Below, piece by piece: positions 1 through 61,035 of a stretch of 64,000 bases of DNA. The notes below the pieces were generated by a model that saw nothing but the letters and a program-made list of their open reading frames with translations, searched no databases and was not told the DNA's origin. Location of the stretch: the NCBI GenBank assembly GCA_963752285.1, contig CAVVXN010000001.1, positions 64,001 to 128,000 of the forward strand. The letters run 5' to 3'. The stretch comes from an uncultured Planctomycetota bacterium (GTDB lineage Bacteria > Planctomycetota > PLA2 > JAEUHO01). Within the stretch, counting starts at the first letter, position 1. The number at the start of each line of letters is the position of its first letter. The translations under genes and the position numbers were made by a program.

Positions 1-537
1 ACCCGCCGGCCCGGCGCATCCGTCGTGCTGCGGGTCGAGACTGTCCTGCGGGCGCGCGGCGCCGCCGTGCGTCCCGACCGCGGACCTGCCCCGAATTCGG
101 CCATCGAGAGGATGCTATCGCCCCTCGGGTCGGTGCGCCAAGGTGACGCCGTGGAGGGCATGTGGATGCGACTTTATTGCGGGCCCGCTTGGGGCGGCTG
201 TCGTCGAGCGGGCGGCGGTCGGGTGGAAGCGGTCCGAGTCTCTCCAGCCCCTGGCTGCCTCCGTTGACTGCGCGGTGGAGCCGCCCCGTCCCAAGTCCGC
301 GCGCGACGCGGCATCCGAAGGTCGCCTGGGTACTCGGCCTTCCATCTTGCGGTCGGGTGCGTCGCGACTTGTGACGCCAGATGCTGACGCCCTTGGAGCA
401 CAGTTGAGACGGTCTCCTGACCTTTCGTTGCCGCTCGTTGCGCTTTGTCAGGAACGGACGGCCTCGGCGCCGCGCTCGTATCGGGCGCCGCAACGTGGCA
501 ACGACGCGCAGGTTGCGGCGAGGAGGCGCAACGAGGG

Positions 538-47301: not shown

Positions 47302-48320
47302 CGATCGACGCCGATTCCCGTGACGCGTTCCTGGTGGATCAGGCCACGAGGGCCGACGCCGGTCCCTGCCCCGACGCGAGCGTGGTCGCCGGCCTCGTCG
47401 AGGGGGCGCTGCTCGACGACGAGGGGGAGCGCGTCGCCGCGCACGCGGCCCTGTGCCCGGCATGTCGGGAGGCGATCGTGGTCCTGGCCGAGGCCGGCGA
47501 GGGCGACGTGCGGTCCCGTGCGCCCAGGCCCGCGCCCGCCCCGCGCGCGCGGCCCCGCCCGCGGCGGCTCCCACCCCGCCGGCTCGTCGCGATCGCCGCC
47601 CTCGTCCTCGTCGGGGTCGGCGCCCTCGCGCTCCTCGCCCACGCCCCCACCGAGAGCGACGCGCACGCCGGCACCGACGCCCGCCTCCTCGCCGCCGCGC
47701 GGGACCTCGCGTCGGCCGACCCGGGCCTCTTCGCGCGCTTCACGCCCCTCACGCACGACGAGCGGACCGCGGCCCGCGGCGTCCGCGAGCGCGGCGGGCT
47801 CGTGCTCCTCGGGCCGCGGGAGGTCGTGCTCTCGGACCGCCCCGCGTTTCGCTGGGAGACGGTCCCGGGATCGACGCGCTACGAGGTGACGGTCCTGGGG
47901 GCCGACGACCGGCCGATCTGGACCCGGGCCGCGACCGGCACGAGCCTCCCCTATCCCGACGACGAGCCCGCCTTGGAGGCGGGCACGCGCCACGCGTGGG
48001 CGCTCTCGACACAGGGCGTCCTCGGCGGGCGTACCGAGTCGCGCGCCACGTTCACCGTCGCCTCGCCCGACCAGGCTGACGCCTTCGCGCGCGCCCGGCG
48101 CGCGATCACGGACCGCGCGCCCGCCGATCTGGCCGCGCTCCTCTGTGCGCACTGGGCGCTCCGGCACGGTCTCCTCGACGAGGCCGAGCAGCTCGCGAAC
48201 GCGGCGCTGGCCGACGATCCCGACGACGACGCGCGCGTGGAGACGCTCCGCGCGGTCCTGCGCCGGCGCGGCGCGAGCACCACGGGCGCGGCCCGGGGGT
48301 CCGGGGCGGGAACGCGATGA
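47298..48320 (+). CDS. Zn-binding anti-sigma (zf-HC2) with TM and extracytoplasmic DUF928-like domain
   Basis: HAALCPAC, TM helix, RPAFRW...YEV; ATGA coupling on both sides. Confidence 0.75.
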   Translation: MTIDADSRDAFLVDQATRADAGPCPDASVVAGLVEGALLDDEGERVAAHAALCPACREAIVVLAEAGEGDVRSRAPRPAPAPRARPRPRRLPPRRLVAIAALVLVGVGALALLAHAPTESDAHAGTDARLLAAARDLASADPGLFARFTPLTHDERTAARGVRERGGLVLLGPREVVLSDRPAFRWETVPGSTRYEVTVLGADDRPIWTRAATGTSLPYPDDEPALEAGTRHAWALSTQGVLGGRTESRATFTVASPDQADAFARARRAITDRAPADLAALLCAHWALRHGLLDEAEQLANAALADDPDDDARVETLRAVLRRRGASTTGAARGSGAGTR

Positions 48321-51289
48321 CGCGCCGCGCGGCCCGGTCCCTGGCCCTCCTCGTCACCGTGGCCCTCGCAGTGCTGGGCGGGCCCCCGGCGGCGGCCGGC
48401 GAGTCTTCGCGCTCCAACGTGAAGCTCGACCAGGCCGCATTCCGGTTCGTGAAGGCCTTCTCGGACGGCGACGAGGACGCGATGCGCGCCGTGGCCGAGG
48501 ACCGCTCGTACGACGCCCGAAGCCTCGCCGACCGGATGCTCGCGCTCTACGAGTACGCGTGGACTCGGTCCTCGCCGCGGCAGAAGGTCATCATGGACGC
48601 GATCGGCGCCTACGCGGAGCGCGCCCGCTCGCGGCCCGAGGTGCGGGGACTGCCCCAGGTCGTCGCGGCCTGGGCCCTCCTCGCGCCGAAGGACCTGGCG
48701 CGAAACCAGTGGTTGCGCGGGATCGTGGACCAGGTGCACCAGGCGGAGGACCGGACGGAACCGGCGAAGGTCCTCGAGATCCTCGCGACGGCGAAGTCCG
48801 CGCTGGCCGTGCAGCCGCCCACCCTGTCGGTGCTCGTGTTGCGCGAGTCCGAGGCCCGCGCCCTCCGGAGCACGGGTCGCCTGGACGAGGCGGTCGCCGC
48901 CTGCGGGCGGGCGAAGGACGTCGCCGAGGCGCTCCGCTCGCCTCGGGACGAGGCCTACTGCCTCGAGCTGCTCGGCCTGGTCCAGGCCCGCGCCAACCGG
49001 ACCGCCGAGGCGGCGGCGGCGTACGAGGAGGCGCTGGCGATCCGGGAGGACTTCGGGCCCCCGAGGAACGCGACGTGGGTGCGGGTCGAGCTCTGCCGCG
49101 CGTGGTCCGAGCTCGGGAGGCTCGCCGACGCGCTCGCGGTCGGCGAGCGTGCGCTGAGCGACCAACGCGACCTCGGCGACCCGGATCTCCTCGGGCGGAA
49201 CCTCTTCGTGCTCGCGTGTGCGCGGCGCGACCTCTTCGATCCCGCGGGCGCGCGGGACCTCTACGAGCGGGCCGCCGCGGCGTACCGAACCGCCAAGGAC
49301 GACCTGGCCTCGGCGACGGCCCTCTCGGGCTCCGCGTGCATGCGCCTGACGAACCCGGCGCGCGACCTCGACGGCGCGAAGGAGCGATACGAGCAGGTTC
49401 TCGCGACCGCGAAGGCCCACGACGACGCGTACCTCGCGCTCCTGGCCACGTACGGGCTCGGCAGCACGGCGCGGGACCGCGGCGACACTCGGGAGGCCGT
49501 CGAGCTCCACGAGCGCGCCCTCGCCATGGCGACCGATCAGCAGAAGCAGGACATCGCCATGTACGTCCTCGCCGCCCTCGGCTCCGACCACCTGGTGCGC
49601 GGCGAGCCGAAGGCGGCCGTGGACGCGCTCGAGCGCGCCATCCGGATCGCGGACGAGATGCACTTCCCCCAGCGACGGCTCGGGATCACGCACCGTCTCC
49701 TCGCGCGGGCCTACCACGAGAGCGGTCGTCCGCACGACGCCGTGGTGGCCGCCGAGGCCGGGCTCGTGCTGCGGCGGGACCGGGCGCGGGAGCTCGGAGA
49801 GGGCTTCAGCGCCACGGAGCAGGCGGGGGTCCGGGCGACCGCGGACACGGGCATCCTGGCCGCCCTCCGCTGGGTCGCGCGCGAGCCGCGGGCGCGCGCG
49901 GACGCGGCCGCCGCCGCCTTCCTCCTCTCCGAGGCGGCGCGCGCCGAGTTCCTCGCCGACCGGCTGATCGACGCGGGCGACCCGATCGAGACGCGGGAGG
50001 AGCGCGCGGAGCAGGAGTCCGCACGCCGGAGGCTCGACGACGCGAGACGGAGCGTCCTCCTCCTCGCGTTCGGCGAGGCGCGGGACGACGCGGCCCTCGC
50101 GGCCGCGAAGAAGGCGTACGAGGAGGCGGGCGCCCGGCTCCGCGAGCTCCGCGCGCGCGCCGACCTGCGTCGCGACACGGCGCGCGGGGGCGCGGACCCG
50201 GTCTCGCTCGAGGAGGCGCAGCGGGCGCTGCCCGAGGGCACGGCCCTCGTCTTGTACCAGGTCACCTACGAGCGGCTCGTGGCCGTGGTCGTCACGCGCG
50301 GGGGCGCGGACCTGGTGGACCTGGGCGAGCCCGCCCCGGTGATCGAGGCGTCGAAACGATGGCTCGACGCGATCGCGTCTCCGGACGGGGAGGAGGGCGA
50401 CCTGCCCGAGACCCTGTACGACGCGCTCGTCGGACCGCTCGCGTCGCGCCTCACGGACGCGCGAACGCTCCTCGTCGGTCGCGACGGCCCCCTCGAGTAC
50501 CTCCCCTTCGAGGCGCTGGTCCATCGGGAGGACGGGCGCCCGCGACGCGCCGTCGAGCGGTGGACGATCTCGTACGTGCCCTCGGCGACCGTCTACGCGA
50601 CGCTCGAGAGCCGTGCCGACTCCGCGCCCCCGCGGGACTCGCTCGTCGCCCTGGGCGACCCCGTGTATCCCGGCGAGACCGGTCGGCCGGACGCGGAGCG
50701 GAGCGTGGCGCGCACGCGCGGGCTCGCGAGCCTCGATCGGCTGTTCGCGAGCGGCGACGAGGTCCGGGCGGTCGCGGCGCGCTTCGCCCCCGCCCGTCGG
50801 ACGGTCCTCCTTCGCGAGGACGCGACGCGTGCGCGCCTCGCCGACGCCGTCCGGGCCGACGGGAACCGGCTCCGCGTCCTCCACCTCGCGTGCCACGGCT
50901 TCGTGGACGAGCGGATTCCGTACGGCTCCGGCCTCGTCCTCTCCGGGGCCGACGTTTTGAGCGTGGACGACGTGTCCCGGATGCGCCTGTCCGCGGACGT
51001 CGTCGTGCTCTCCGCCTGCGAGAGCGGCCGGGGCCGGGCGCGGGTGGGCGAGGGGATCCTCGGCCTGCCGCGCGCGTTCCTCACCGCGGGGGCGACGCGC
51101 GTGGTCGCGGCGGACCGCGCCATCGCCGACGAGGACGCGCGCGACCTCCTGTCCCGGTTCTACGACGCGTATCTCGACGGCGGTCTCGCCCCCGCGGCCG
51201 CCCTCCGCGCGGCCAAGCTCCAGCGCATCCGCGCGGGCGGCCCCGCGGCGCACCCGTACGCCTGGGCGGGCCTCGTGCTCTGGGAGTGA
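48317..51289 (+). CDS. TPR + CHAT (caspase-like) protease with signal peptide
   Basis: LPFEAL, LHLACHG (His), VVLSACESG (Cys), HPYAWAG; TPR helices. Confidence 0.92.
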   Translation: MTRRAARSLALLVTVALAVLGGPPAAAGESSRSNVKLDQAAFRFVKAFSDGDEDAMRAVAEDRSYDARSLADRMLALYEYAWTRSSPRQKVIMDAIGAYAERARSRPEVRGLPQVVAAWALLAPKDLARNQWLRGIVDQVHQAEDRTEPAKVLEILATAKSALAVQPPTLSVLVLRESEARALRSTGRLDEAVAACGRAKDVAEALRSPRDEAYCLELLGLVQARANRTAEAAAAYEEALAIREDFGPPRNATWVRVELCRAWSELGRLADALAVGERALSDQRDLGDPDLLGRNLFVLACARRDLFDPAGARDLYERAAAAYRTAKDDLASATALSGSACMRLTNPARDLDGAKERYEQVLATAKAHDDAYLALLATYGLGSTARDRGDTREAVELHERALAMATDQQKQDIAMYVLAALGSDHLVRGEPKAAVDALERAIRIADEMHFPQRRLGITHRLLARAYHESGRPHDAVVAAEAGLVLRRDRARELGEGFSATEQAGVRATADTGILAALRWVAREPRARADAAAAAFLLSEAARAEFLADRLIDAGDPIETREERAEQESARRRLDDARRSVLLLAFGEARDDAALAAAKKAYEEAGARLRELRARADLRRDTARGGADPVSLEEAQRALPEGTALVLYQVTYERLVAVVVTRGGADLVDLGEPAPVIEASKRWLDAIASPDGEEGDLPETLYDALVGPLASRLTDARTLLVGRDGPLEYLPFEALVHREDGRPRRAVERWTISYVPSATVYATLESRADSAPPRDSLVALGDPVYPGETGRPDAERSVARTRGLASLDRLFASGDEVRAVAARFAPARRTVLLREDATRARLADAVRADGNRLRVLHLACHGFVDERIPYGSGLVLSGADVLSVDDVSRMRLSADVVVLSACESGRGRARVGEGILGLPRAFLTAGATRVVAADRAIADEDARDLLSRFYDAYLDGGLAPAAALRAAKLQRIRAGGPAAHPYAWAGLVLWE

Positions 51290-51532
51290 GCGCGCCGGCT
51301 GCGCCGCGCGCCGCGGACCGCGCGCGTCCCGACGCCGGCATCGACGACCCGACGACGCTGCGTCCCCCCACCGGAGGCGCCTCGCTTGCGACGCCTCGAT
51401 GCACCGGGGCCTCTGCCCGTCGGGGTGAACGGAAGCGGCATTCGGCGCGATCTCGTTCCTGCTGCGGAAGGGCGTCGATGCGGGCACGCAGGCGTGTCTC
51501 ACCGGTGAGGACCGCCGCCCCGGCCGGGTGGG

Positions 51533-52417
51533 TCAACGGTAGAGGATCGAGAGGAGCACCAGGCGCTCCCCGTGGCGCAGAGGCTCTCGCGCGTGGACCA
51601 CCCCGCACTCCATGGCGACGGCGGAGCCCGGCTCGATCTCGTGCCGGTGGACCGCGCCGCGCGGGCCGTACGTCAGGAGCGCCGAGCCCGAGGAAGACCC
51701 GTTCGGCAGCGCGCGGTCCACGCACACGAGCAGGTTCACGGTGAAGCCCGGGTCGTCGGCGTGGGGCCACGTGTGGTCGCGCGGCTTCGTGTAGTAGAGG
51801 TACTTCGCGACGAGACCCGGCGAGACGTCGCGCCCCACGGCGCGGGCTACGGCGCGGCAGAGTCGGGCATCGACGGCGAGCTCGCACCCTCGCCGTCCGG
51901 GCCGCCGGCCACTCGCGACGCGCCCGACGCGAAGGCCCCGCGAGGCGTCGCGTCGAAGGGCGTGGAGCCGCCGCGCGTCGAGCCCGGGGAGCGCGTCGAG
52001 CGGCACGACGGCGGTGGGGTAGCCGATCCCGAAGAAGTGCACCAGCGCGTTCCAGCCCGCGCGCAGCACGGGATCGGTCGGGACGCGACCGTCCGGGGCG
52101 AGCCCGGTCGGCGCGTACTGGAGCAGGATGCGGAGCGGACGGTCCGCGCCGGCCCCGCGACGCTCGATCGTCCGCGCGAGGCGGCGCGCGAGGCGGAGCG
52201 CCGTCCGGCCCCAGGTGGCCCGCGGTCCCGCCGCGCGTCGCCACGCGGCGGCGTGGGTACGGAGGACGCGGACCCGCGGGTCCCGCCGGCCCGAGACGTG
52301 GCGCAGGTTGATGTCGTCCTCGGGCAGGCGGTACGCGAGCTCGCCCGCGGTCAGGAGCAGGTCGAGGAGCGCCCGGGCGGGCGGGTCGTCGCAGAACGCC
52401 TCCCGGGCGCGGGGCAC
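51533..52417 (-). CDS. Putative 2OG-Fe(II) oxygenase
   Basis: C-terminal YLYY..PHADD (HxD), VVHAREP (His), GERLVL (Arg); true start may be ATG 52485 if the G5 run lacks one base. Confidence 0.62.
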   Translation of the reverse strand: MPRAREAFCDDPPARALLDLLLTAGELAYRLPEDDINLRHVSGRRDPRVRVLRTHAAAWRRAAGPRATWGRTALRLARRLARTIERRGAGADRPLRILLQYAPTGLAPDGRVPTDPVLRAGWNALVHFFGIGYPTAVVPLDALPGLDARRLHALRRDASRGLRVGRVASGRRPGRRGCELAVDARLCRAVARAVGRDVSPGLVAKYLYYTKPRDHTWPHADDPGFTVNLLVCVDRALPNGSSSGSALLTYGPRGAVHRHEIEPGSAVAMECGVVHAREPLRHGERLVLLSILYR

Positions 52418-52497
52418 CGCGTCGCGGAAGGGCAGGGAGTAGCGGATCGCCGCGGTGGGGCGCGCGAGCCGCCCCCGCGGAGCATCGAAGCCTACGA

Positions 52498-52617
52498 CTA
52501 CTGCTCCTGCCCCAGCGAGGCGCGGCCCCCCTTGACCTTGGCGGCGTCCGCCTTGCGAACGGGCAGGTCCTTGGGGCTCTTCGCGGACGCGTTCTTGCTC
52601 GGCTTCTTCGAGGGCAT
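52498..52617 (-). CDS. Putative double-glycine leader precursor peptide (39 aa), absent from the ORF track
   Basis: MPSKKPSKNASAKSPKDLPVRKADAAKVKGG-RASLGQEQ; GGAGG RBS; high GC3; divergent from the C39 exporter operon. Confidence 0.78.
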   Translation of the reverse strand: MPSKKPSKNASAKSPKDLPVRKADAAKVKGGRASLGQEQ

Positions 52618-52701
52618 CACCGATCCTCCGGGTTGGGGTGGCGACTACTATGTCAATCCCCGCGGCGGCGGCAAGGCCCTGGGCGTGGAGGTGAGAGGCG
52701 C

Positions 52702-53679
52702 TTGGCCGAACCCGAGCTCGAACCGCCCGCGGCGCTCACGGCCACGGTCTTCGAGATCGCCGGACGGCCGGTCACGGTGCGAGACGTGGTTCGTGCGGCG
52801 GACGCACGAGGGGCCCTCGACGACGCCAAAGGCCGATTCGTCGCGGGCCTCGAGGCCGAGGCGCGGGCCCGGGAGGCCGGGGAGGCCCCCCCCGACGACG
52901 CCGTCGAGGCGCGCGCGAACGAGATCCGGTACGAGCGCAACCTGATCACCGCCGAGGAGGCGGAGTCGTGGCTTTCGGCCCGGGGTCTCACGTACGACGC
53001 GCTCCTCGATCACTGTCGTCGCGAGCTCCTCCGGGAGGCCGAGGCCGCTGTGGCCGACCGCGCGAGAGGCCTCGTACCGCCCGAACGCGAGGCCGACTTC
53101 CTCGCCTACCTCGTGTTCTCGGGCGAGCTCGATGGCCAGGCGCGGGAGCTGGCGCGACGCCTCGTGGTGAGCGACCCGGACGGGGACCTCTCGCCCGACC
53201 GCCTGCGGTCGGTGGAGGCGTCCTACCGACGACACCTGTCGGCGCTCACGGCGGAGCGGGAACGCGAACGCGTCCTGGCCCTCCTGCGCCTCCCCTTGAC
53301 GCGGGTGGACGTCGAGGTCCTCGACGCGCCTTCGCTCGACGCGGCGCGGGAGGTCGTCCTGTGCCTTCGCCAGGACGGCGCCGACACCGCGGCGCTCGCG
53401 GCGGAGACCGGGTACCCCCACGCGCGGGCTTCGCCGTTCCTGGACGACCTCGAGGACGACGTGCGCGACGCGCTCCTCTCCGCGGCGCCCGGCGACGTGC
53501 TGGAACCGGTCGAGGAGCCCCCGCGCGTGCGCGTCTTCCGCCTGCGCTCGAAACGCGAGCCGACGCTCGAAGACCCCGAGGTGCGCGAGCGCGTGGACCA
53601 GCGGATCGTCGACGCGCACTTCGCCGAGCGGGTCGCGCGGACCGTGAGGTGGCGGCTCTCGGACGAGCGGAACCGATGA
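52702..53679 (+). CDS. PpiC/SurA-like (peptidylprolyl isomerase-related) maturation protein
   Basis: RYERNLITAEE..WL..RGL, DAAREVVLC, LLSAAPGDVLEPV; TTG start after GGAGG; coupled to the ABC gene. Confidence 0.62.
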   Translation: MAEPELEPPAALTATVFEIAGRPVTVRDVVRAADARGALDDAKGRFVAGLEAEARAREAGEAPPDDAVEARANEIRYERNLITAEEAESWLSARGLTYDALLDHCRRELLREAEAAVADRARGLVPPEREADFLAYLVFSGELDGQARELARRLVVSDPDGDLSPDRLRSVEASYRRHLSALTAERERERVLALLRLPLTRVDVEVLDAPSLDAAREVVLCLRQDGADTAALAAETGYPHARASPFLDDLEDDVRDALLSAAPGDVLEPVEEPPRVRVFRLRSKREPTLEDPEVRERVDQRIVDAHFAERVARTVRWRLSDERNR

Positions 53680-56600
53680 GCGAGCTCCTCCGAGAGAGCC
53701 CCCTCGAACGCACGGTCTTCCGGTTCCTCGGCGCCGGGGCCCGCGCCGCCCTGCTCGAACGGTTCACCCCGTGCCGCTTCGCGTTCGGCGACGTCGTCGT
53801 ACGCCAGGGCGAGGAGGCCGACGCCTACTACGTGATGACGGAGGGACGTGCGCGGGTCCTCCGCACGACCGAGACGGGCGAGGAGATCTCGCTGCGGGTC
53901 CTCCGGACGGGGGACGAGTTCGGCGAGGCCGCGCTCTCGCCCGGCGGCGCGCGGTCGGCCACGGTTCGGTGCAGCAGCCGCGTCGAGGTCCTCCGCCTCG
54001 AACGGACCGCGTTTCTCGCCCTGGCCCACGAGAACCCCGCGATCCGTCACGCGGTCGAGATCGCGGCCCGGTTCAAGACGCTCCACGGGTTCCTGTACGA
54101 GTTCAGCAACTTCGGCCGCCTGTCGGCGCCGTGCGTCCAGCGGTTGGTGGAGAGCCTCGAGCCCGAGCCGCGCGCGCGCGGCGAGGTCTTCCTCCGCGAG
54201 GGCGACCCGCCCGGCCCGATGTACGTGATCCAGCAAGGCCGCGTCCGGCTCTTCACGACCCGCGGCGGTCGCGAGCACAACCTCGCATTCCGGCGGGAGG
54301 GCGAGTTCTTCGGCGAGATGTCCGCCTTGAGCGGCACGCCGCGGTCCGCGTCCGCCGAGGCGACGACCGACACCGTGCTCCTCGCGCTTCGACCGCAGGC
54401 GGTGAACCGCCTCCGGGAGGAGTTCCCGGATCTCGGCCGCCTGCTCGAAGAACGCATCGCCCAGTACCGGTCCGACGAGGCCGCGCGCGTACCGCTCGAC
54501 TTCGCCACCGAGATGCTGCCGGCGGACGCGTCCGTCGAGAACAAGGTCGGCCTGGACCTCGAGGACGAGACGCCCGCCCCCGGTCCCGACGCCGCGGCGG
54601 TGAAGGTCCCGCGCCTGCGGCGTCGGTTCCGGTCCTTCCCCTACGTCGCGCAGATCGACGAGATGGACTGCGCCGCCGCGGCACTCGCCATGGTCTGCCG
54701 CCACCACGGGCGCAAGGTGGCGCTGCCCCGCATCCGCGAGCTGTGCCAGACCTCCACCGACGGCACGAGCCTCAAGGCGATCTGCCACGCCGCCCGCGAG
54801 CTGGGCCTGGCGGCGCGCGCGGCGAAAGTGTCCGCGCGCGAGATCGACGGCCTGCCGCTGCCGGCGATCGCCCATTGGGAGGGGAACCACTGGGTCGTCG
54901 TGCACGCGGTGGACCGCGGCCACGTCCACGTCGCCGATCCCGCGCAGGGCCTCCGCAAGATCGACCGGCGCGCGTTCCTCGAACGCTGGACCGGCTACGC
55001 CGCCCTCTTCGACTACACGACCGCCTTCGAGCACGCCCCCGAGGGCCGGCCGGCGCTCTCCTGGATCTGGCCCTTCTTCGGACGCCACCGCGCGGTCCTC
55101 GTGAAGGTGCTCCTCCTCGCCGGTGTCGTCAGCGCGCTCCAGCTCGTCCTGCCGCTCCTCACGCAGACGGTGATCGACTCCGTGATCGTCGGCAAGGACG
55201 TGAGCCTCCTCGCGACCATCATGCTCGGCATCGGCGCGGCCCTCGTGTTCATGGTCCTCGCGAGCGTCGTCCAGCAGTACCTGCTCGCCTACGCGGCGGT
55301 GCGCATCGACTCGGCGATCCTCGACTTCCTGACGCGCCGGCTGCTCGCGCTCCCGATGCGGTACTTCCAGACCCGGCGCACCGGCGACATCCAGCGTCGC
55401 CTGGACGGCGCGGAACAGATCCGGGAGCTCGTGGTCCAGCACGGCATCGGCAGCGTCCTCGCGATCGTGCTGCTCCTCGGCTGCCTCGGGCTGATGTTCG
55501 CGTACAGCGCGACCCTCGCGCTCGCCTTCCTCGCGGTTGCGCCGCTGTACGGCGTGCTGGTCTGGCTGTCGGTGCGCTTCTTGAAGCCCATCCTCGCCGA
55601 CCTCGAGGCGAGCCGCGGCCGGTACCGGGCGCACCAGATCGACGCGATCAAGGGCATCGAGGCGGTGAAGGCCGCGTCCGCCGAAGGCGCGTTTCGCGAC
55701 GCGATGCTCTCGCAGTTCCTCTCGGTCACCCGGCAGATGTTCCGCGGAACGTTCTTCTTCATGGGCTACGACAGCGCGATCCAGACGCTCAGCGTGGTCG
55801 CGACGGCCCTCTTCCTCTGGGTCGGCGCCCGCCAGGTCCTCTCGGGCGCGATGTCCGTGGGCGGGTTCGTCGCGTTCAACACCCTCGCGATGATGGCGAA
55901 CGCCTCGATCCTCCGGCTGCTCCAGTCGTGGGAGAAGGCGCTCTCGGCCTCCGTCCTCCTCCACCGGCTCGAGGACGTGGTCGCGCAGGAGCCCGAGCAG
56001 GGCAGCGACCACGCGCGGCTCCGGCCCGTCCCGAGCCTCGAGGGCCGGATCGAGCTCCGGGGCGTCGGCTTCCGCTACGGCGGGCCCGAGTCCCCGCGCA
56101 TCCTCCAGGACGTCACGCTGGACGTGCCCGCCGGGCAGAGCCTCGCGCTCGTGGGACGGAGCGGCTGCGGCAAGACGACCCTCGTGAAGCTCGTGGCCGG
56201 GCTCCTCGAGCCGACGGAGGGCACGATCCTCTTCGATCGCATGGACCTCGCGACGCTCGACCACGCCGCGCTCCGCCGCCACGTCGGCATCGTCCTCCAG
56301 GAGAACCACGTCTTCGACGGGTCGATCCGCGACAACATCGCGTTCGGCGATCCCGACCCGGACCTCGGCCGCGTGCTCTGGGCCGCGCGCATGGCGAACG
56401 CCCACGAGTTCGTGATGCGGCTGCCGCTGGGCTACGAGACACGCGTCGGCGAGTCGGGCCTCGCGCTCTCGGGGGGCCAGAAGCAGCGTGTCGTGATCGC
56501 CCGCGCGCTGTACGCCGATCCCGCGGTCCTGATCTTCGACGAGGCGACCAGCGCGCTCGACTCCGAGTCCGAGCGCGCCATCCAGGAGAGCATGGGCCAG

Positions 56601-56774
56601 CTTCTCGCGGGCCGGACGTCGCTCGTCATCGCCCACCGCCTCTCGACGATCCGCGACGCCGACCGGATCGTCGTCCTCGAGCGGGGGAAGATCGCCGAGG
56701 AGGGCACACACGACGAGCTGATGGCGCTCCGCGGCCTCTACTTCCACCTCTCGAGCCAGCAGGCGACGGGCTGA
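53676..56774 (+). CDS. Peptidase-containing ABC transporter: 2x cNMP-binding + C39 peptidase + TMD + NBD
   Basis: FGE..RSA twice; QIDEMDCAAA, NHWVVV, VADP; GRSGCGKT, LSGGQKQR, DEATSALD, IAHRL. Confidence 0.93.
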   Translation: MSELLRESPLERTVFRFLGAGARAALLERFTPCRFAFGDVVVRQGEEADAYYVMTEGRARVLRTTETGEEISLRVLRTGDEFGEAALSPGGARSATVRCSSRVEVLRLERTAFLALAHENPAIRHAVEIAARFKTLHGFLYEFSNFGRLSAPCVQRLVESLEPEPRARGEVFLREGDPPGPMYVIQQGRVRLFTTRGGREHNLAFRREGEFFGEMSALSGTPRSASAEATTDTVLLALRPQAVNRLREEFPDLGRLLEERIAQYRSDEAARVPLDFATEMLPADASVENKVGLDLEDETPAPGPDAAAVKVPRLRRRFRSFPYVAQIDEMDCAAAALAMVCRHHGRKVALPRIRELCQTSTDGTSLKAICHAARELGLAARAAKVSAREIDGLPLPAIAHWEGNHWVVVHAVDRGHVHVADPAQGLRKIDRRAFLERWTGYAALFDYTTAFEHAPEGRPALSWIWPFFGRHRAVLVKVLLLAGVVSALQLVLPLLTQTVIDSVIVGKDVSLLATIMLGIGAALVFMVLASVVQQYLLAYAAVRIDSAILDFLTRRLLALPMRYFQTRRTGDIQRRLDGAEQIRELVVQHGIGSVLAIVLLLGCLGLMFAYSATLALAFLAVAPLYGVLVWLSVRFLKPILADLEASRGRYRAHQIDAIKGIEAVKAASAEGAFRDAMLSQFLSVTRQMFRGTFFFMGYDSAIQTLSVVATALFLWVGARQVLSGAMSVGGFVAFNTLAMMANASILRLLQSWEKALSASVLLHRLEDVVAQEPEQGSDHARLRPVPSLEGRIELRGVGFRYGGPESPRILQDVTLDVPAGQSLALVGRSGCGKTTLVKLVAGLLEPTEGTILFDRMDLATLDHAALRRHVGIVLQENHVFDGSIRDNIAFGDPDPDLGRVLWAARMANAHEFVMRLPLGYETRVGESGLALSGGQKQRVVIARALYADPAVLIFDEATSALDSESERAIQESMGQLLAGRTSLVIAHRLSTIRDADRIVVLERGKIAEEGTHDELMALRGLYFHLSSQQATG

Positions 56775-56885
56775 CGCTCTCCGCCGGCCGTGCCGGCAGC
56801 GACATCGCGTGGGCCCGGGCCTCTCCGGGGTTGCTCCGCGGGCGTCGCCCCGATGGAATGGCCGACCCAGGCTGGAGAGGTCCCC

Positions 56886-57329
56886 ATGGAACCCACGATC
56901 GAGACGCTCACAAAACGACCCCTGCTCGGCATCCGCGCGCACGTGAAGGTCACGCAGATCGGCGAGCGGATCGGCGAGCTGATGCCGCGTCTCATGGCCG
57001 TCGCCGGTCCCCACGTGGCGGGTCCTCCCGTCGCGCGCTGGCACACGTGGGAGAACGACGAGGGCGAGATGGAGCTCGCGGTGCCCGTCCGGACGCCGGT
57101 CGAGGGCCGGGGCGAGGTCCAGGCCTCCACGCTGCCCGGCGGGCGCGCCGCGGTGTTCACACACGTCGGTTCCTACGAGGGCCTGAAGGACGCGTGGGGT
57201 GGCGTCTCCAAGTGGCTCCAGTCGAGCGCCTACCAGGGCCGGGACGCGCCCTGGGAGGAGTACGTGGACGACGGCCGGAGCACCCCGGTCGAGAGGCTCC
57301 GCACGCGGATCGTCTGGCCGATCGTCTGA
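56886..57329 (+). CDS. GyrI-like small-molecule-binding protein
   Basis: LPGGRAA..H.GSYEGL..AW, PWEEY, LRTRIVWP. Confidence 0.85.
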   Translation: MEPTIETLTKRPLLGIRAHVKVTQIGERIGELMPRLMAVAGPHVAGPPVARWHTWENDEGEMELAVPVRTPVEGRGEVQASTLPGGRAAVFTHVGSYEGLKDAWGGVSKWLQSSAYQGRDAPWEEYVDDGRSTPVERLRTRIVWPIV

Positions 57330-58267: not shown

Positions 58268-59194
58268 TTGGATCCCGGGTCGTCCGTTCCGCTCCTGCCG
58301 TACCGTGAACCGCGCTGGGAACGCTCGGTCGCGAGCGTGGAGATCGACGACGAGAGAGGGCGCGCGCTCCTCGCGGCGTGGCCCGAGCTCGTCGGGCGGC
58401 CCTGGCGGCATCTCGAGGGCGGCCTTCGGTCGTCCGGTTTCCGGGTCGGCGACGACCTCGTGCTGCGCGTCGCGTCGTCCCCCGAACAGGACCTGGAGCG
58501 GGAGGCCGCGCTCCACGAACGCATGGCCGGGCGCGTCCGCGTGCCCCGCGTGCGGGGTCGCGCCCCCGGCGCGCTGCTCTTGGAGCACGTCCCGCACGCC
58601 GAGCTGCCCGACACGGCGGCCGCCGGTGGCGCCGCGGGACGCGCCGCGGCGCGAATCCACGCGTTCGGGTACGAGCGGAGCGGGTTCCTCGACGCGCACC
58701 TCGACGTCGTCGATCCGTTCCCCGACGCGCTGACCGGGCTCCTCGGGTGGACGACGTCGTGTCTCGCCGGGCCGGCCGGGCGGACCCTCGGCCCGCGTGT
58801 CGCGCGCGTCCGTGACGCGTGGCAGGAGGCGCACGCGGCGCTCGTCCGCGCCACCGAGCGACCCGTCCTCCTGCACGCCGACTTCAAGCCCGCGAACGTG
58901 AAGTGGCTGCCCGGCGAAGGGGACGTGGTCGTGTTCGACTGGGAGTTCTCGTGGGCCGGCCCCGCGCTGATGGACGTCGGACAGATGTTCCGTTGGGGCG
59001 CGTCGGCGGAGTTCACCTCGGCCTTCGCGTCGGCGTACCGGGCCGAGGGGGGAACGATGTCCGAGGGGTGGGCGCGGACCGCGGCGCTCCTGGACCTCTT
59101 CAACCTGGTCGGCCTCCTCGACCACCTCGAGCCGATGCCGCGCCGCGACGGCGACCTGCTGGACGCCGTGGATCGGACCCTCGGGACGCGGTAG
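58268..59194 (+). CDS. APH/choline-kinase-like phosphotransferase
   Basis: LLHADFKPAN, FDWE. Confidence 0.82.
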   Translation: MDPGSSVPLLPYREPRWERSVASVEIDDERGRALLAAWPELVGRPWRHLEGGLRSSGFRVGDDLVLRVASSPEQDLEREAALHERMAGRVRVPRVRGRAPGALLLEHVPHAELPDTAAAGGAAGRAAARIHAFGYERSGFLDAHLDVVDPFPDALTGLLGWTTSCLAGPAGRTLGPRVARVRDAWQEAHAALVRATERPVLLHADFKPANVKWLPGEGDVVVFDWEFSWAGPALMDVGQMFRWGASAEFTSAFASAYRAEGGTMSEGWARTAALLDLFNLVGLLDHLEPMPRRDGDLLDAVDRTLGTR

Positions 59195-59286
59195 CCCCGC
59201 CGACGTCGAAGGCCGACGGCGTGCGGGACGCAGGCGGGGCGGGTACGCTCGCGCCCCCAGGGCACGGAGGCGGGAGGAGCGTCGGG

Positions 59287-61035
59287 ATGGCCGCCGACAC
59301 GAACCGGGTCGCCGGGATCGACCTCGGGACCACGAACAGCTCGATCGCCGTGTTCGAGGACGGACGCGTCCGCGTCCTTCCGAACGCGCTGGGCGAACCC
59401 CTCACGCCCTCCGTGGTGGCGTGGGACGAGCGCGAGCGGCGCATGCTCGTCGGCCGCACGGCGAAGGACATCTGGGCGCTCCACCCGGACCGTGGCGCCG
59501 GCCTCTTCAAGCGCGCCATGGGGACGAACCGCGTGTACCGGGTCGGACCGCAGCTTCTGACGGCGATCGAGCTGAGCGCGCTCGTCCTCCGGGATCTCAA
59601 GGAGAACGCCGAGCGCTCGCTCGGCGAGATCGTCGAGCGGGTCGTCATCACGGTGCCCGCCTACTTCAACGAGGACCAGCGCCTCGCGACGCGGCAGGCC
59701 GGCGAGCGCGCGGGATTCTGCGTCGAGCGCATCCTGAACGAGCCCACGGCGGCGGCCATCGCGCACGGGCTCCACCGGCGCAAGAGCGAGGCGGTGCTGC
59801 TGGTGTTCGATCTCGGCGGCGGCACGTTCGACGTGTGTGTCATGGAACGCTTCGAGGGGAACCTCGAGGTCAAGAGCGTCGCGGGCGAGAGCATGCTCGG
59901 CGGCGAGGACTTCACGCGTCGCATCGCCGGCGCGGCGCTCGAGCGCTTCGGGCTCCCCTTCGAGATCGCGGAGATGGAGGATCCGGAGGCGCTGGCCCTG
60001 CTCGTCAAGCGGGCCGAGCTCCTGAAGCGCGGTCTCGCCGGCGCGACGACGGGGAGCCCCCCGCCCGCCCTCCGCATCCCGCCGTTCGGCACGCGTCTGA
60101 AGGAGGAGCAGTCGGTCCCGGTCGGCGCCGCGATCCTCGACGACGCCTTCGCGCCCCTGCTCTCCCGGCTGACCGGGCCCGTGCGCACCGCGCTCCGGAG
60201 CGCGCACCTCACGCGCACCGACGTGGACGAGCTGATCCTGGTGGGCGGCGCCACGCGGCTGCCGCAGGTCGTCCAGCTGGTCTGCGAGCTCCTGCCGGTC
60301 GCTCCGCACGACGGCGTGGATCCCGACCTGGCCGTCGCGTACGGCGCGGCGATCCAGGGCGCCCTCTACGCCCGCGAGGAGGCGGTCTCGGACCTCGTGG
60401 TCACCGACATCGCGTCCCACAGCCTCGGCGTGGACACGTGCAAGGTCTTCGGCGCCGAACATCGCGGGGGCTACTTCTCCCCGATCATCCACCGGGGAAC
60501 GGTGATCCCCACCTCGCGCGCGACCACCTTCACCACGATCGACGCGAACCAGACGGTCATGGTCCTCGGCGTGTACGAGGGCGAGGCGCGGCACGTGAAG
60601 GACAACCGGAAGATCGGCGAGCTGCGCGTGAGCGGCATCCCGAAGGGACCGCCGGGTAAGGGCGTCGAGGTCACGTTCACGTACGACCTCGACGGCATCC
60701 TCCAGGTGGACGCGCGGGTTCGCGACACGGGCGCCACGTTCTCGAAGGTGTTCCACCGCACGGGGCGAGAGCTCGACGCCGACGAGGCCGCGGCGGCGGC
60801 CGCCCGCCTCGCGGAGCTCAAGGCCGACCCGTGCGAGGCGCCCGCCGTGCGCGATCTGATCGCGCGGGCCGAGCTCTTGCTCCGCGACGTGAGCGCCGAG
60901 GAACGACGGCAGCTCGAGCAGGGGCTCGACGCCCTCGAGCACGCGCTCCTCGACCGCGACGCCGCGCGCATCGAGGAGGCGCGCGCCCACCTCGAGTCGC
61001 TCTGCCAGGAGCTCGACGGCGGGGACCGCTGGTGA
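59287..61035 (+). CDS. Hsp70-family chaperone, HscC-like
   Basis: GIDLGTTNS, TVPAYFN, NEPTAAA, DLGGGTFD, LGGEDF, VGGATR, FSPIIHRGTVIPTSR. Confidence 0.9.
   Translation: MAADTNRVAGIDLGTTNSSIAVFEDGRVRVLPNALGEPLTPSVVAWDERERRMLVGRTAKDIWALHPDRGAGLFKRAMGTNRVYRVGPQLLTAIELSALVLRDLKENAERSLGEIVERVVITVPAYFNEDQRLATRQAGERAGFCVERILNEPTAAAIAHGLHRRKSEAVLLVFDLGGGTFDVCVMERFEGNLEVKSVAGESMLGGEDFTRRIAGAALERFGLPFEIAEMEDPEALALLVKRAELLKRGLAGATTGSPPPALRIPPFGTRLKEEQSVPVGAAILDDAFAPLLSRLTGPVRTALRSAHLTRTDVDELILVGGATRLPQVVQLVCELLPVAPHDGVDPDLAVAYGAAIQGALYAREEAVSDLVVTDIASHSLGVDTCKVFGAEHRGGYFSPIIHRGTVIPTSRATTFTTIDANQTVMVLGVYEGEARHVKDNRKIGELRVSGIPKGPPGKGVEVTFTYDLDGILQVDARVRDTGATFSKVFHRTGRELDADEAAAAAARLAELKADPCEAPAVRDLIARAELLLRDVSAEERRQLEQGLDALEHALLDRDAARIEEARAHLESLCQELDGGDRW

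Follow-up and report, generated by a model that had tools for sequence, protein, structure and literature searches.

A candidate oxygenase-modified peptide system with a HetC-type exporter in an uncultured Planctomycetota bacterium

Introduction

A 64,000-nucleotide stretch of DNA from an uncultured Planctomycetota bacterium (GenBank assembly GCA_963752285.1, contig CAVVXN010000001.1, positions 64,001 to 128,000 of the forward strand; hereafter the window) encodes a 39-amino-acid peptide with a double-glycine (GG) leader next to a putative 2-oxoglutarate (2OG)/Fe(II) oxygenase and, in divergent orientation, a PpiC-like protein together with a HetC-type exporter carrying a C39 peptidase domain. 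Our comparative analysis indicates that these four genes probably belong to a system for a ribosomally made peptide with post-translational modification (RiPP) that is built from two modules, precursor plus oxygenase and PpiC-like protein plus exporter. As a general kind, RiPPs with a GG leader and a C39 exporter are known, whereas the analysis supports the novelty of both the peptide family and the oxygenase family. The product likely has a signalling role. The source genome (G000) has a G+C content of 73% and comprises five contigs with 4.64 Mb at 89% completeness.

Results

Organization of the locus

A sequence-only reading of this stretch had described two divergent operons about 85 bp apart, with a 39-amino-acid open reading frame (ORF) ending in VKGG-RASLGQEQ and an HxD...H oxygenase-like gene on one side, and a PpiC-like gene coupled to an ABC transporter with an intact C39 catalytic set on the other. 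The small ORF is indeed located at 52498-52617 on the minus strand, and the divergent gap measures 84 bp, assuming TTG 52702, with GGAGGTGAG ahead of it, as the start of the PpiC-like gene. The stop codon TGA of the PpiC-like gene and the ATG of the exporter overlap as ATGA at 53676, in agreement with the described coupling, and the oxygenase gene begins 50-80 nt downstream of the small ORF, both on the minus strand. Only the spacer between KDL and VKGG, given as eight residues, had to be corrected to nine. The features of the locus are as follows:

52498..52617, minus strand: precursor peptide gene, 39 amino acids (Shine-Dalgarno sequence, G/C at third codon positions, homologues)
51533..52447, minus strand: putative 2OG/Fe(II) oxygenase of a new family, 294-308 amino acids (fold, metal triad; listed as 51533-52417)
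51761-51763, 51755-51757 and 51593-51595, minus strand: codons of the oxygenase metal triad H233, D235 and H289, respectively (codon check)
52618..52701, no strand: divergent intergenic region of 84 bp between the precursor and PpiC-like genes (coordinates)
52702..53679, plus strand: PpiC-like (SurA/PrsA-like) protein, 325 amino acids (weak Rotamase_2 and profile matches)
53676..56774, plus strand: HetC-type exporter, 1032 amino acids (Pfam cNMP_binding twice, Peptidase_C39, ABC_membrane, ABC_tran)
54636..55013, plus strand: C39 peptidase domain, exporter residues 321-446 (alignment with PCAT1 (4ry2) and ComA)

The divergent region at 52618-52701 is presumably the site of the promoters. A scan of 51300-53000 returned no sigma-70-type promoter or terminator-like site, but such a scan is uninformative for this organism.

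A conserved precursor gene adjoins the oxygenase gene

The small ORF translates into MPSKKPSKNASAKSPKDLPVRKADAAKVKGG-RASLGQEQ, 39 amino acids counted from the ATG; the listed start is a GTG one codon further upstream. Since long spurious ORFs abound at 73% G+C, an ORF of this length needs independent support. A GGAGGA ribosome-binding site lies 6 nt before the ATG, and 38 of the 39 codons end in G or C. A homologous ORF of 37-53 codons was found directly upstream of an oxygenase homologue, on the same strand, in all 12 loci compared (the window, L004 and L006-L015). A clear Shine-Dalgarno sequence precedes 10 of the 11 ORFs outside the window and a weak one the ORF of L015, while in L008, L009 and L011 the stop codon of the precursor overlaps the start of the oxygenase. 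A gene-encoded precursor with leader and core thus stands beside a modifying enzyme in 12 of 12 loci, an arrangement that is one of the hallmarks of RiPPs.

The comparison DNA consisted of a genome of the same family (G003), a metagenome contig (L004) and ten genome records (L006-L015, with L006 being a G003 contig). The latter were obtained by scanning a genome collection with a 9-sequence alignment of oxygenase relatives; the same collection gave no match with the single oxygenase protein, and a metagenome scan for oxygenase relatives yielded one locus, L004. By their labels, the records belong to Planctomycetia or Planctomycetota (L006, L010, L012), Thermoanaerobaculia (L007), Acidobacteriota (L008, L011), Binatota (L009) and Verrucomicrobiota or Verrucomicrobiae (L013-L015). 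Statements on L013 and L024 rest on G422, a genome flagged as unpublished.

Residues 1-31 of the window precursor form the leader, with a Lys-rich N-terminus followed by KDLPVRK and KVKGG. Double-glycine leaders carry hydrophobic residues at positions -4, -7 and -12, where the window leader has V, A and V, respectively, as read from the sequence. The remaining eight residues, RASLGQEQ, make up the core, in which the conserved G-x-E corresponds to G36-Q37-E38. Alignment of the 12 peptides revealed a common order of Met, a Lys-rich stretch, [KR][DESV]L with invariant Leu, about nine residues, [VI][KQR]GG with invariant GG, and an 8-19-residue core whose Gly is invariant and, in 11 of 12 peptides, has a Glu two positions after it. 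In window numbering, M1, L18, G30, G31 and G36 are invariant, and K16, K27 and E38 are conserved to at least 90%. The cores are RASLGQEQ (window), AASAGHEKLR, TTNLGEEPLT, QAGLGQVRGGPVLGQEDLA, MAPGPETLPG, MTPGPETLSGR, MYSGPPTDPIEP, MATYGPES, TITYGPET, LFVSGGLAGPEDFNFSQP, LSSQVGGGLAGPEDFRGF and LGVGGGLAGPEDWGVHSP.

When 5.8 billion proteins were searched with the 12-peptide profile, 45 clusters reached E ≤ 1 and 42 of these reached E ≤ 1e-4; every one of the 45 is unnamed or annotated as 'hypothetical protein'. The majority of these 45 relatives have cores of the type x-G-P-E-[TDSN], and the clade that shares the KDLPVRK-type leader of the window has G-[QHESWVG]-E in place of G-P-E. The window peptide matched no NCBIfam (E ≤ 0.1) or Pfam (E ≤ 0.01) model, leader and bacteriocin models included, and the best value of ten related peptides against curated models was E 0.088 (EntF-type). 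Within G000, a genome scan found no paralogues and exactly one ORF with a Lys-rich GG leader.

Two further observations concern the precursors of other loci. A subgroup (L010 6769-6927, L012 6786-6938, L015 6683-6844) has a longer core with GGLAGPED[FW] and a Cys in the leader, at -8 in L010 and L012 and at -6 in L015 (..DCKDIRGG, ..DCKKIKGG and ..SCKVQGG). Two of the three genomes with this subgroup (G419, G421) encode a divergent exporter, 35-38% identical, and a PpiC-like gene was not detected in them; leader and exporter may co-vary here. In L004, a second small ORF (260-472, plus strand) with a GG-type leader and a Gly-rich core, ...LADLIPRKDPKGG-SGGSGKAVFGGG..., is located upstream of the oxygenase-linked precursor at a distance of about 100 bp.

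The neighbouring gene encodes a predicted 2OG/Fe(II) oxygenase outside the described families

The window oxygenase matched no model of Pfam (E ≤ 0.01) or NCBIfam (E ≤ 0.1). Similarly, 52 of 54 relatives had no Pfam match, and the other two showed marginal, sub-threshold matches to HalD and TauD. A word-indexed search of 5.8 billion proteins returned four relatives, and an exhaustive HMMER search of 1.84 billion representatives returned 117 at E ≤ 1e-3, among them 38 at E ≤ 1e-10 and 13 at E ≤ 1e-30. H233, D235 and H289 (residues counted on the 308-amino-acid translation of 51533-52459) are the only invariant columns among 103 aligned family members and occur in the HxD...H arrangement that the sequence-only reading had recognized. 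In the close subfamily of 14 sequences, Y223, S259, R272, R291-E292-P293 and G297-E298 are invariant as well. The position +10 after H289 is occupied by R, H, K, Q or S in the alignment.

An AlphaFold 2 model based on 103 sequences reached a predicted local distance difference test (pLDDT) score of 95.6 and a predicted template modelling (pTM) score of 0.92, compared with a pLDDT of 50.2 for a model from 6 sequences. It consists of a helical N-terminal domain of about 145 amino acids and a C-terminal double-stranded beta-helix domain (residues 148-308). Foldseek found 203 matches to this model in the PDB at E ≤ 1e-3, and among the matches listed there are only 2OG/non-haem-iron oxygenases, including a Burkholderia 2OG oxygenase, the Pseudomonas putida prolyl-4-hydroxylase (P4H), AviO1, EctD and BesD/HalA-type enzymes. 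VIA-align superimposed residues 148-308, the only region that matched, on SnoN, the human prolyl hydroxylase domain (PHD) enzyme PHD2, a Trichoplax PHD and P. putida P4H with Z-scores of 15-16 (maximum 16.1) and a root-mean-square deviation of about 3 Å over about 153 residues. The oxygenase profile searched against PDB sequences gave E 3.6e-4 for 9blq (PolD, a hydroxylase) and 0.016 for 4iw3 (P. putida P4H). The helical N-domain (the first ~145 residues) was left uncovered by the structural matches in these whole-model searches, and the domain alone was not searched. Judged by the modelled fold and the metal triad, the neighbouring gene encodes a member of the 2OG/Fe(II) oxygenase superfamily that falls into no described family.

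In the window, AAIRYSLPFRDAV is the aligned counterpart of the homologues' N-termini (M-x-[VI]-R-L-x-x-P-F-R-A), and the conserved oxygenase N-terminus IRYSLPFRDAV (52415-52459, minus strand) lies upstream of the sole canonical start, GTG 52417. A complex prediction of oxygenase and precursor scored 0.01 against a mark of 0.32, a result that speaks neither for nor against binding.

The exporter combines cNMP-type and C39 domains and is coupled to a PpiC-like gene

Pfam assigned cNMP_binding (E 4e-42, 142.5 bits, two stretches), Peptidase_C39 (3.7e-37, 127.6 bits), ABC_membrane (2.1e-38, 133.1 bits) and ABC_tran (2.4e-33, 116.1 bits) to the exporter, the last three all with scores above the Pfam cut-offs. 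With 527.2, 409 and 390 bits, it stays below the NCBIfam cut-offs of TIGR03796 (853.3), TIGR03797 (709.4) and TIGR01193 (523.85), respectively. The C39 protease should be active, because Gln326, Cys332, His405 and Asp421 occupy the catalytic positions in an alignment with PCAT1 (4ry2) and ComA, which agrees with the intact set described for this gene; in the 7n87 construct, the Cys332 column is Ala. The window exporter contains the one C39 domain found in G000.

The PpiC-like protein matches Rotamase_2 at E 7e-4 with 20.8 bits (cut-off 27), and a profile of six homologues matches PrsA (6vj6, E 1.8e-3) and SurA (2.4e-3). Four of these six homologues match TIGR04500 weakly (best E 6.5e-10, about 38 bits versus a cut-off of 180 bits), and the window protein gave no match to this model at E ≤ 1. 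A signal peptide was not obvious when judged by eye. In all nine genomes with a PpiC-like gene, the latter is located directly upstream of the cNMP-exporter gene. As the gene thus tracks the exporter and not the modifying enzyme, the PpiC-like protein appears to serve the export module, of which it is a probable chaperone or partner.

One exporter relative stands apart: in L034 (G825:C4:215351-218728, Verrucomicrobiae), the cNMP-C39-ABC exporter aligns to the window protein in several frames, caused either by frameshifts, i.e. a pseudogene, or by errors of a long-read assembly.

Peptide and oxygenase form a portable unit that is separate from the export module

Whole-genome searches detected the PpiC-like/exporter pair in 9 of the 11 oxygenase-bearing genomes, compared with 3 of 61 relatives of G000, a set that contains G000 and G003. 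In G418, G420 and G422, as well as in G823, G824 and G825, the PpiC-like gene and a cNMP-type C39 exporter (50-57% identical to that of the window) reside away from the oxygenase locus, at a distance of about 440 kb in G418 and about 260 kb in G420. Beyond the peptide/oxygenase unit and the PpiC-like/exporter pair, we found no neighbours common to the loci. Neither module is common. Of these 61 relatives, 2 gave a match to the oxygenase and 3 to the PpiC-like family (G000, G003 and a weak match in G047); in a sample of 401 genomes from the phylum, the oxygenase was detected in one, namely G000, and in 401 sampled Acidobacteriota it was detected in 3.

The export loci of G418 and G420, two Acidobacteriota genomes, are arranged in the order PpiC-like gene, exporter, HlyD, sigma-54 activator and 8-10 small ORFs. 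These arrays (L022 14848-16869, plus strand; L023 1489-3885, minus strand) encode peptides of 47-72 amino acids that have unrelated cores of 15-30 residues behind a Lys-rich N-terminus, [KS]L and A-x-x-V-[KRQ]-GG. The array peptides are kept between both genomes, and no modifying enzyme was seen nearby. Since they share the leader and differ in the core, the exporter is accompanied by the leader type and the oxygenase by the short G-x-E core. Peptide and oxygenase are therefore an invariant and portable pair of genes; the PpiC-like/exporter pair forms an export module of its own, which also serves further peptides carrying this leader type.

The sequence-only reading had treated the four genes as one system, an idea that stands at the level of genome co-occurrence and fails as a fixed cassette, because just 3 of 11 genomes have the PpiC-like/exporter pair next to the other two genes. 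Its expectations of a conserved leader and of co-occurring genes were both confirmed, and so was its view that the locus fits no named class: no curated model matches, and outside of subscription-only papers, we found no published description of the peptide or oxygenase family. As far as sequence comparison can tell, the earlier interpretation is supported across every comparative test.

Other genes around the locus

A 990-amino-acid TPR-CHAT protein (48317-51289, plus strand; Pfam CHAT 3.1e-55), with weak similarity to Csx29-type TPR-CHAT proteins (2e-4), adjoins the oxygenase gene, and a GyrI-like small-molecule-binding protein (56790-57329, plus strand; Pfam 4.3e-20) is encoded 3' of the exporter. 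Both the CHAT-TPR gene (upstream) and the GyrI-like gene (downstream) were considered as parts of the system and rejected, as neither is kept in the other loci. Further on, an aminoglycoside-phosphotransferase-like ORF (58268-59194, plus strand) and an Hsp70-like ORF (58819-61035, plus strand), whose coordinates overlap, were each judged from the translation alone.

Discussion

A model for peptide oxidation and export

Based on these results, we propose a model with two modules, which we consider the probable reading of the locus. In the first, the 39-amino-acid precursor with its 31-residue Lys-rich GG leader would be oxidised by the dedicated oxygenase encoded next to it, most likely by hydroxylation of a residue in or beside the core G-x-E. 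As the middle residue of G-x-E varies, the core Glu is the better target candidate in the clade of the window, while prolyl hydroxylation is conceivable in the G-P-E clades. We considered prolyl hydroxylation of G-P-E as the general reaction and rejected it for the window's clade, where Q, H, E, S, W, V or G stands in the place of Pro. In the second module, the C39 domain would cut after G31 and the transporter would export the eight-residue product, probably gated by a nucleotide ligand on the N-terminal cNMP-type domains, with the PpiC-like protein acting as a cytoplasmic partner or chaperone. As the product is short and hydrophilic, our guess favours a signal over an antibiotic.

Comparison with known systems

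The exporter can be compared with HetC from Nostoc PCC 7120, a cNMP-C39-ABC exporter with unknown substrate. HetC's cNMP domain was found to bind ppGpp in vitro, and heterocyst development depends on its protease and ATPase residues (PMC10986499). According to that report, no GG-leader gene lies near hetC, which is why the substrate is unknown, and identifying the HetC substrate is the next crucial step (PMC10986499). Compared by architecture and not by sequence, both exporters have the same domain order (cNMP-type, C39, ABC transmembrane, ATPase) with the protease residues present, and both hosts have a Gram-negative-type envelope. In contrast to hetC as described there, the window exporter has an adjacent candidate substrate. 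It also differs in its two Pfam cNMP stretches and in the translationally coupled PpiC-like gene upstream.

A PpiC-type protein also occurs in the rosaritide (mir) cluster, which comprises the precursor MirA, the graspetide synthetase MirB, its partner MirC and MirD, an ATP-binding cassette transporter with a peptidase domain (PCAT) (PMC13097080). MirC, the only studied TIGR04500 protein that we came across, is characterized there as an obligatory partner of the synthetase and not as a demonstrated isomerase (PMC13097080), and TIGR04500 is listed among the genes associated with ATP-grasp loci (PMC8939145). Both systems share a GG-processing PCAT and a divergent PpiC/SurA-like protein. The differences are that an ATP-grasp enzyme takes the place of the 2OG oxygenase in the mir cluster, that MirD is a TIGR03796-type PCAT whereas the window exporter scores 527 versus a cut-off of 853, and that the PpiC-like gene of the window travels with the exporter and not with the modifying enzyme.

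NHLP/Nif11-type systems (TIGR03796/TIGR03797), whose precursors are sometimes encoded far from the exporter, have a GG leader, a C39 ABC exporter and Gram-negative-type hosts in common with the window system. However, the window exporter remains below both equivalog cut-offs, and its Lys-rich KDL...KVKGG leader is unrelated.

CinX and CanE are 2OG/Fe(II) peptide hydroxylases of RiPP pathways. Another such enzyme is SmaO, a 2OG Asp beta-hydroxylase acting just past a GG leader, for which the first eight core residues, with DGDG, suffice (PMC12186529). CorC is described as another 2OG oxygenase that tailors a GG-leader precursor (PMC13097080). SmaO and, by prediction, the window enzyme both have as their target a short acidic motif in a precursor with a GG leader. 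However, SmaO, CinX and CanE are tailoring enzymes beside a class-defining ATP-grasp enzyme, lanthipeptide synthetase or lasso cyclase, a distinction made by description and not by sequence, whereas the window oxygenase is the sole modifying enzyme and belongs to a family without a curated model. With PHD2, the Trichoplax PHD and P. putida P4H it has the HxD...H triad and the structural similarity in common (Z 15-16), and these enzymes act on peptide or protein substrates, but the identity is 11-16% and the window enzyme has its additional 145-residue helical N-domain.

Alternative explanations

The adjacency of peptide and oxygenase could also be read without any modification of the peptide, which would then be a class-II-bacteriocin-like toxin or pheromone, with the oxygenase acting elsewhere on a small molecule or protein, or providing immunity or regulation. 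Peptides of this leader family are evidently exported without modification by default, as the G418/G420 module lies beside 8-10 same-leader peptides without a nearby modifying enzyme, and the structural neighbours of the oxygenase include the small-molecule enzymes SnoN, EctD and BesD/HalB. However, the oxygenase gene adjoins the peptide gene in all 12 loci, which come from five phylum-level lineages, with a stop/start overlap in three, the short G-x-E core is specific to the oxygenase-linked peptides and not found in the array peptides, and there is no other conserved neighbour to supply a small-molecule pathway. We therefore regard this explanation as unlikely.

We see an equally small chance that the peptide stays inside the cell with its GG uncleaved, for example bound, as a Lys-rich peptide, to nucleic acids or ribosomes, with its hydroxylation serving as a readout of O2, 2OG or iron. 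PHD-type enzymes hydroxylate EF-Tu or HIF and report O2/2OG/iron status in this way; the nearest structural neighbours include PHD2 and also P. putida P4H, for which a structure with EF-Tu exists, most cores contain G-P-E, and the exporter is mostly not adjacent to the peptide/oxygenase unit. Export is favoured instead by the invariant GG, by V-4, A-7 and V-12, which fit the consensus of GG leaders, by the exporter-adjacent arrays with the same leader type and by the presence of the exporter pair in 9 of 11 oxygenase-bearing genomes.

A different target of the oxygenase, either in the leader (e.g. lysyl hydroxylation of the Lys-rich N-terminus) or at the C-alpha of the core Gly, leading to backbone scission and a shorter, possibly amidated product, would agree with the core Gly as the only invariant core residue, with the variable position after it in the clade of the window and with 2OG-dependent backbone-cleaving enzymes reported in RiPP pathways (PMC12636437), but it is likewise improbable: the Lys-rich leader is common to array peptides without oxygenase and thus looks like an export feature rather than an enzyme target, and the reported cleaving enzymes are HEXXH proteins of another fold.

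Observations that weigh against the model

Our preferred reading, a modified and exported peptide, has to accommodate several findings that weigh against it. On the export side, the window, L006 and L007 (3 of 11 genomes) are, as judged by local tblastn, the only loci with the PpiC-like/exporter pair beside the peptide/oxygenase unit. The long cNMP-type C39 exporters of G419 and G421 are just 35-38% identical to that of the window, and a PpiC-like gene was found in these genomes neither with the window protein as query nor in two short loci around the exporters. A HlyD gene follows the exporter in L007, but no HlyD-type adaptor was found beside the window exporter, and the HlyD of L007 as query gave no homologue in G000, a search in a genome of 89% completeness for which there was no positive control. 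Since no HlyD adaptor was found, the passage of the product across the outer membrane is left without explanation.

On the side of the enzyme, 2OG oxygenases bind the C5 carboxylate of 2OG with an Arg or Lys, and no Arg or Lys column reaches at least 90% conservation in the 103-sequence alignment; R272 and R291 (in H-x-R-E-P) are invariant in the close subfamily only. At the position of the homologues' Met, the window has ATC (52445-52447) and a canonical start codon is missing, pointing either to a non-canonical start, to a truncated N-terminus or to an assembly error. Near two distant family members (L030, L031), such a peptide was not found, and the peptide association is therefore limited to the close oxygenase subfamily. 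Finally, the core is very short and hydrophilic, and its Glu is missing in three or four of the 45 database relatives.

Implications

The peptide and enzyme families described here are distributed over Planctomycetota, Acidobacteriota, Verrucomicrobiota and Binatota, phyla whose secreted peptides are almost unknown. A wider proposal, which we put forward tentatively and hold to be possible though somewhat doubtful, is that they represent a new RiPP class. Its sole and class-defining enzyme would be a hitherto unrecognised prolyl-hydroxylase-like 2OG/Fe(II) oxygenase with a helical leader-binding domain, and its products would be diffusible, G-x-E-hydroxylated signals of 8-20 residues, whose release would be controlled at two points, with O2, 2OG and iron acting via the oxygenase and a nucleotide second messenger acting via the HetC-type exporter.

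With a precursor of 37-53 codons and one oxygenase, the first module is a small, expression-ready unit that could reveal a new peptide oxidation. That the PpiC-like gene tracks the exporter points to a function in delivery or export, which differs from the role of MirC as an enzyme partner. Moreover, the Lys-rich KDL...KVKGG leader that is linked to cNMP-domain C39 exporters provides a search handle for the substrates of HetC-type exporters. If the wider proposal is true, cNMP-domain C39 exporters would gain in these peptides their first defined family of substrates.

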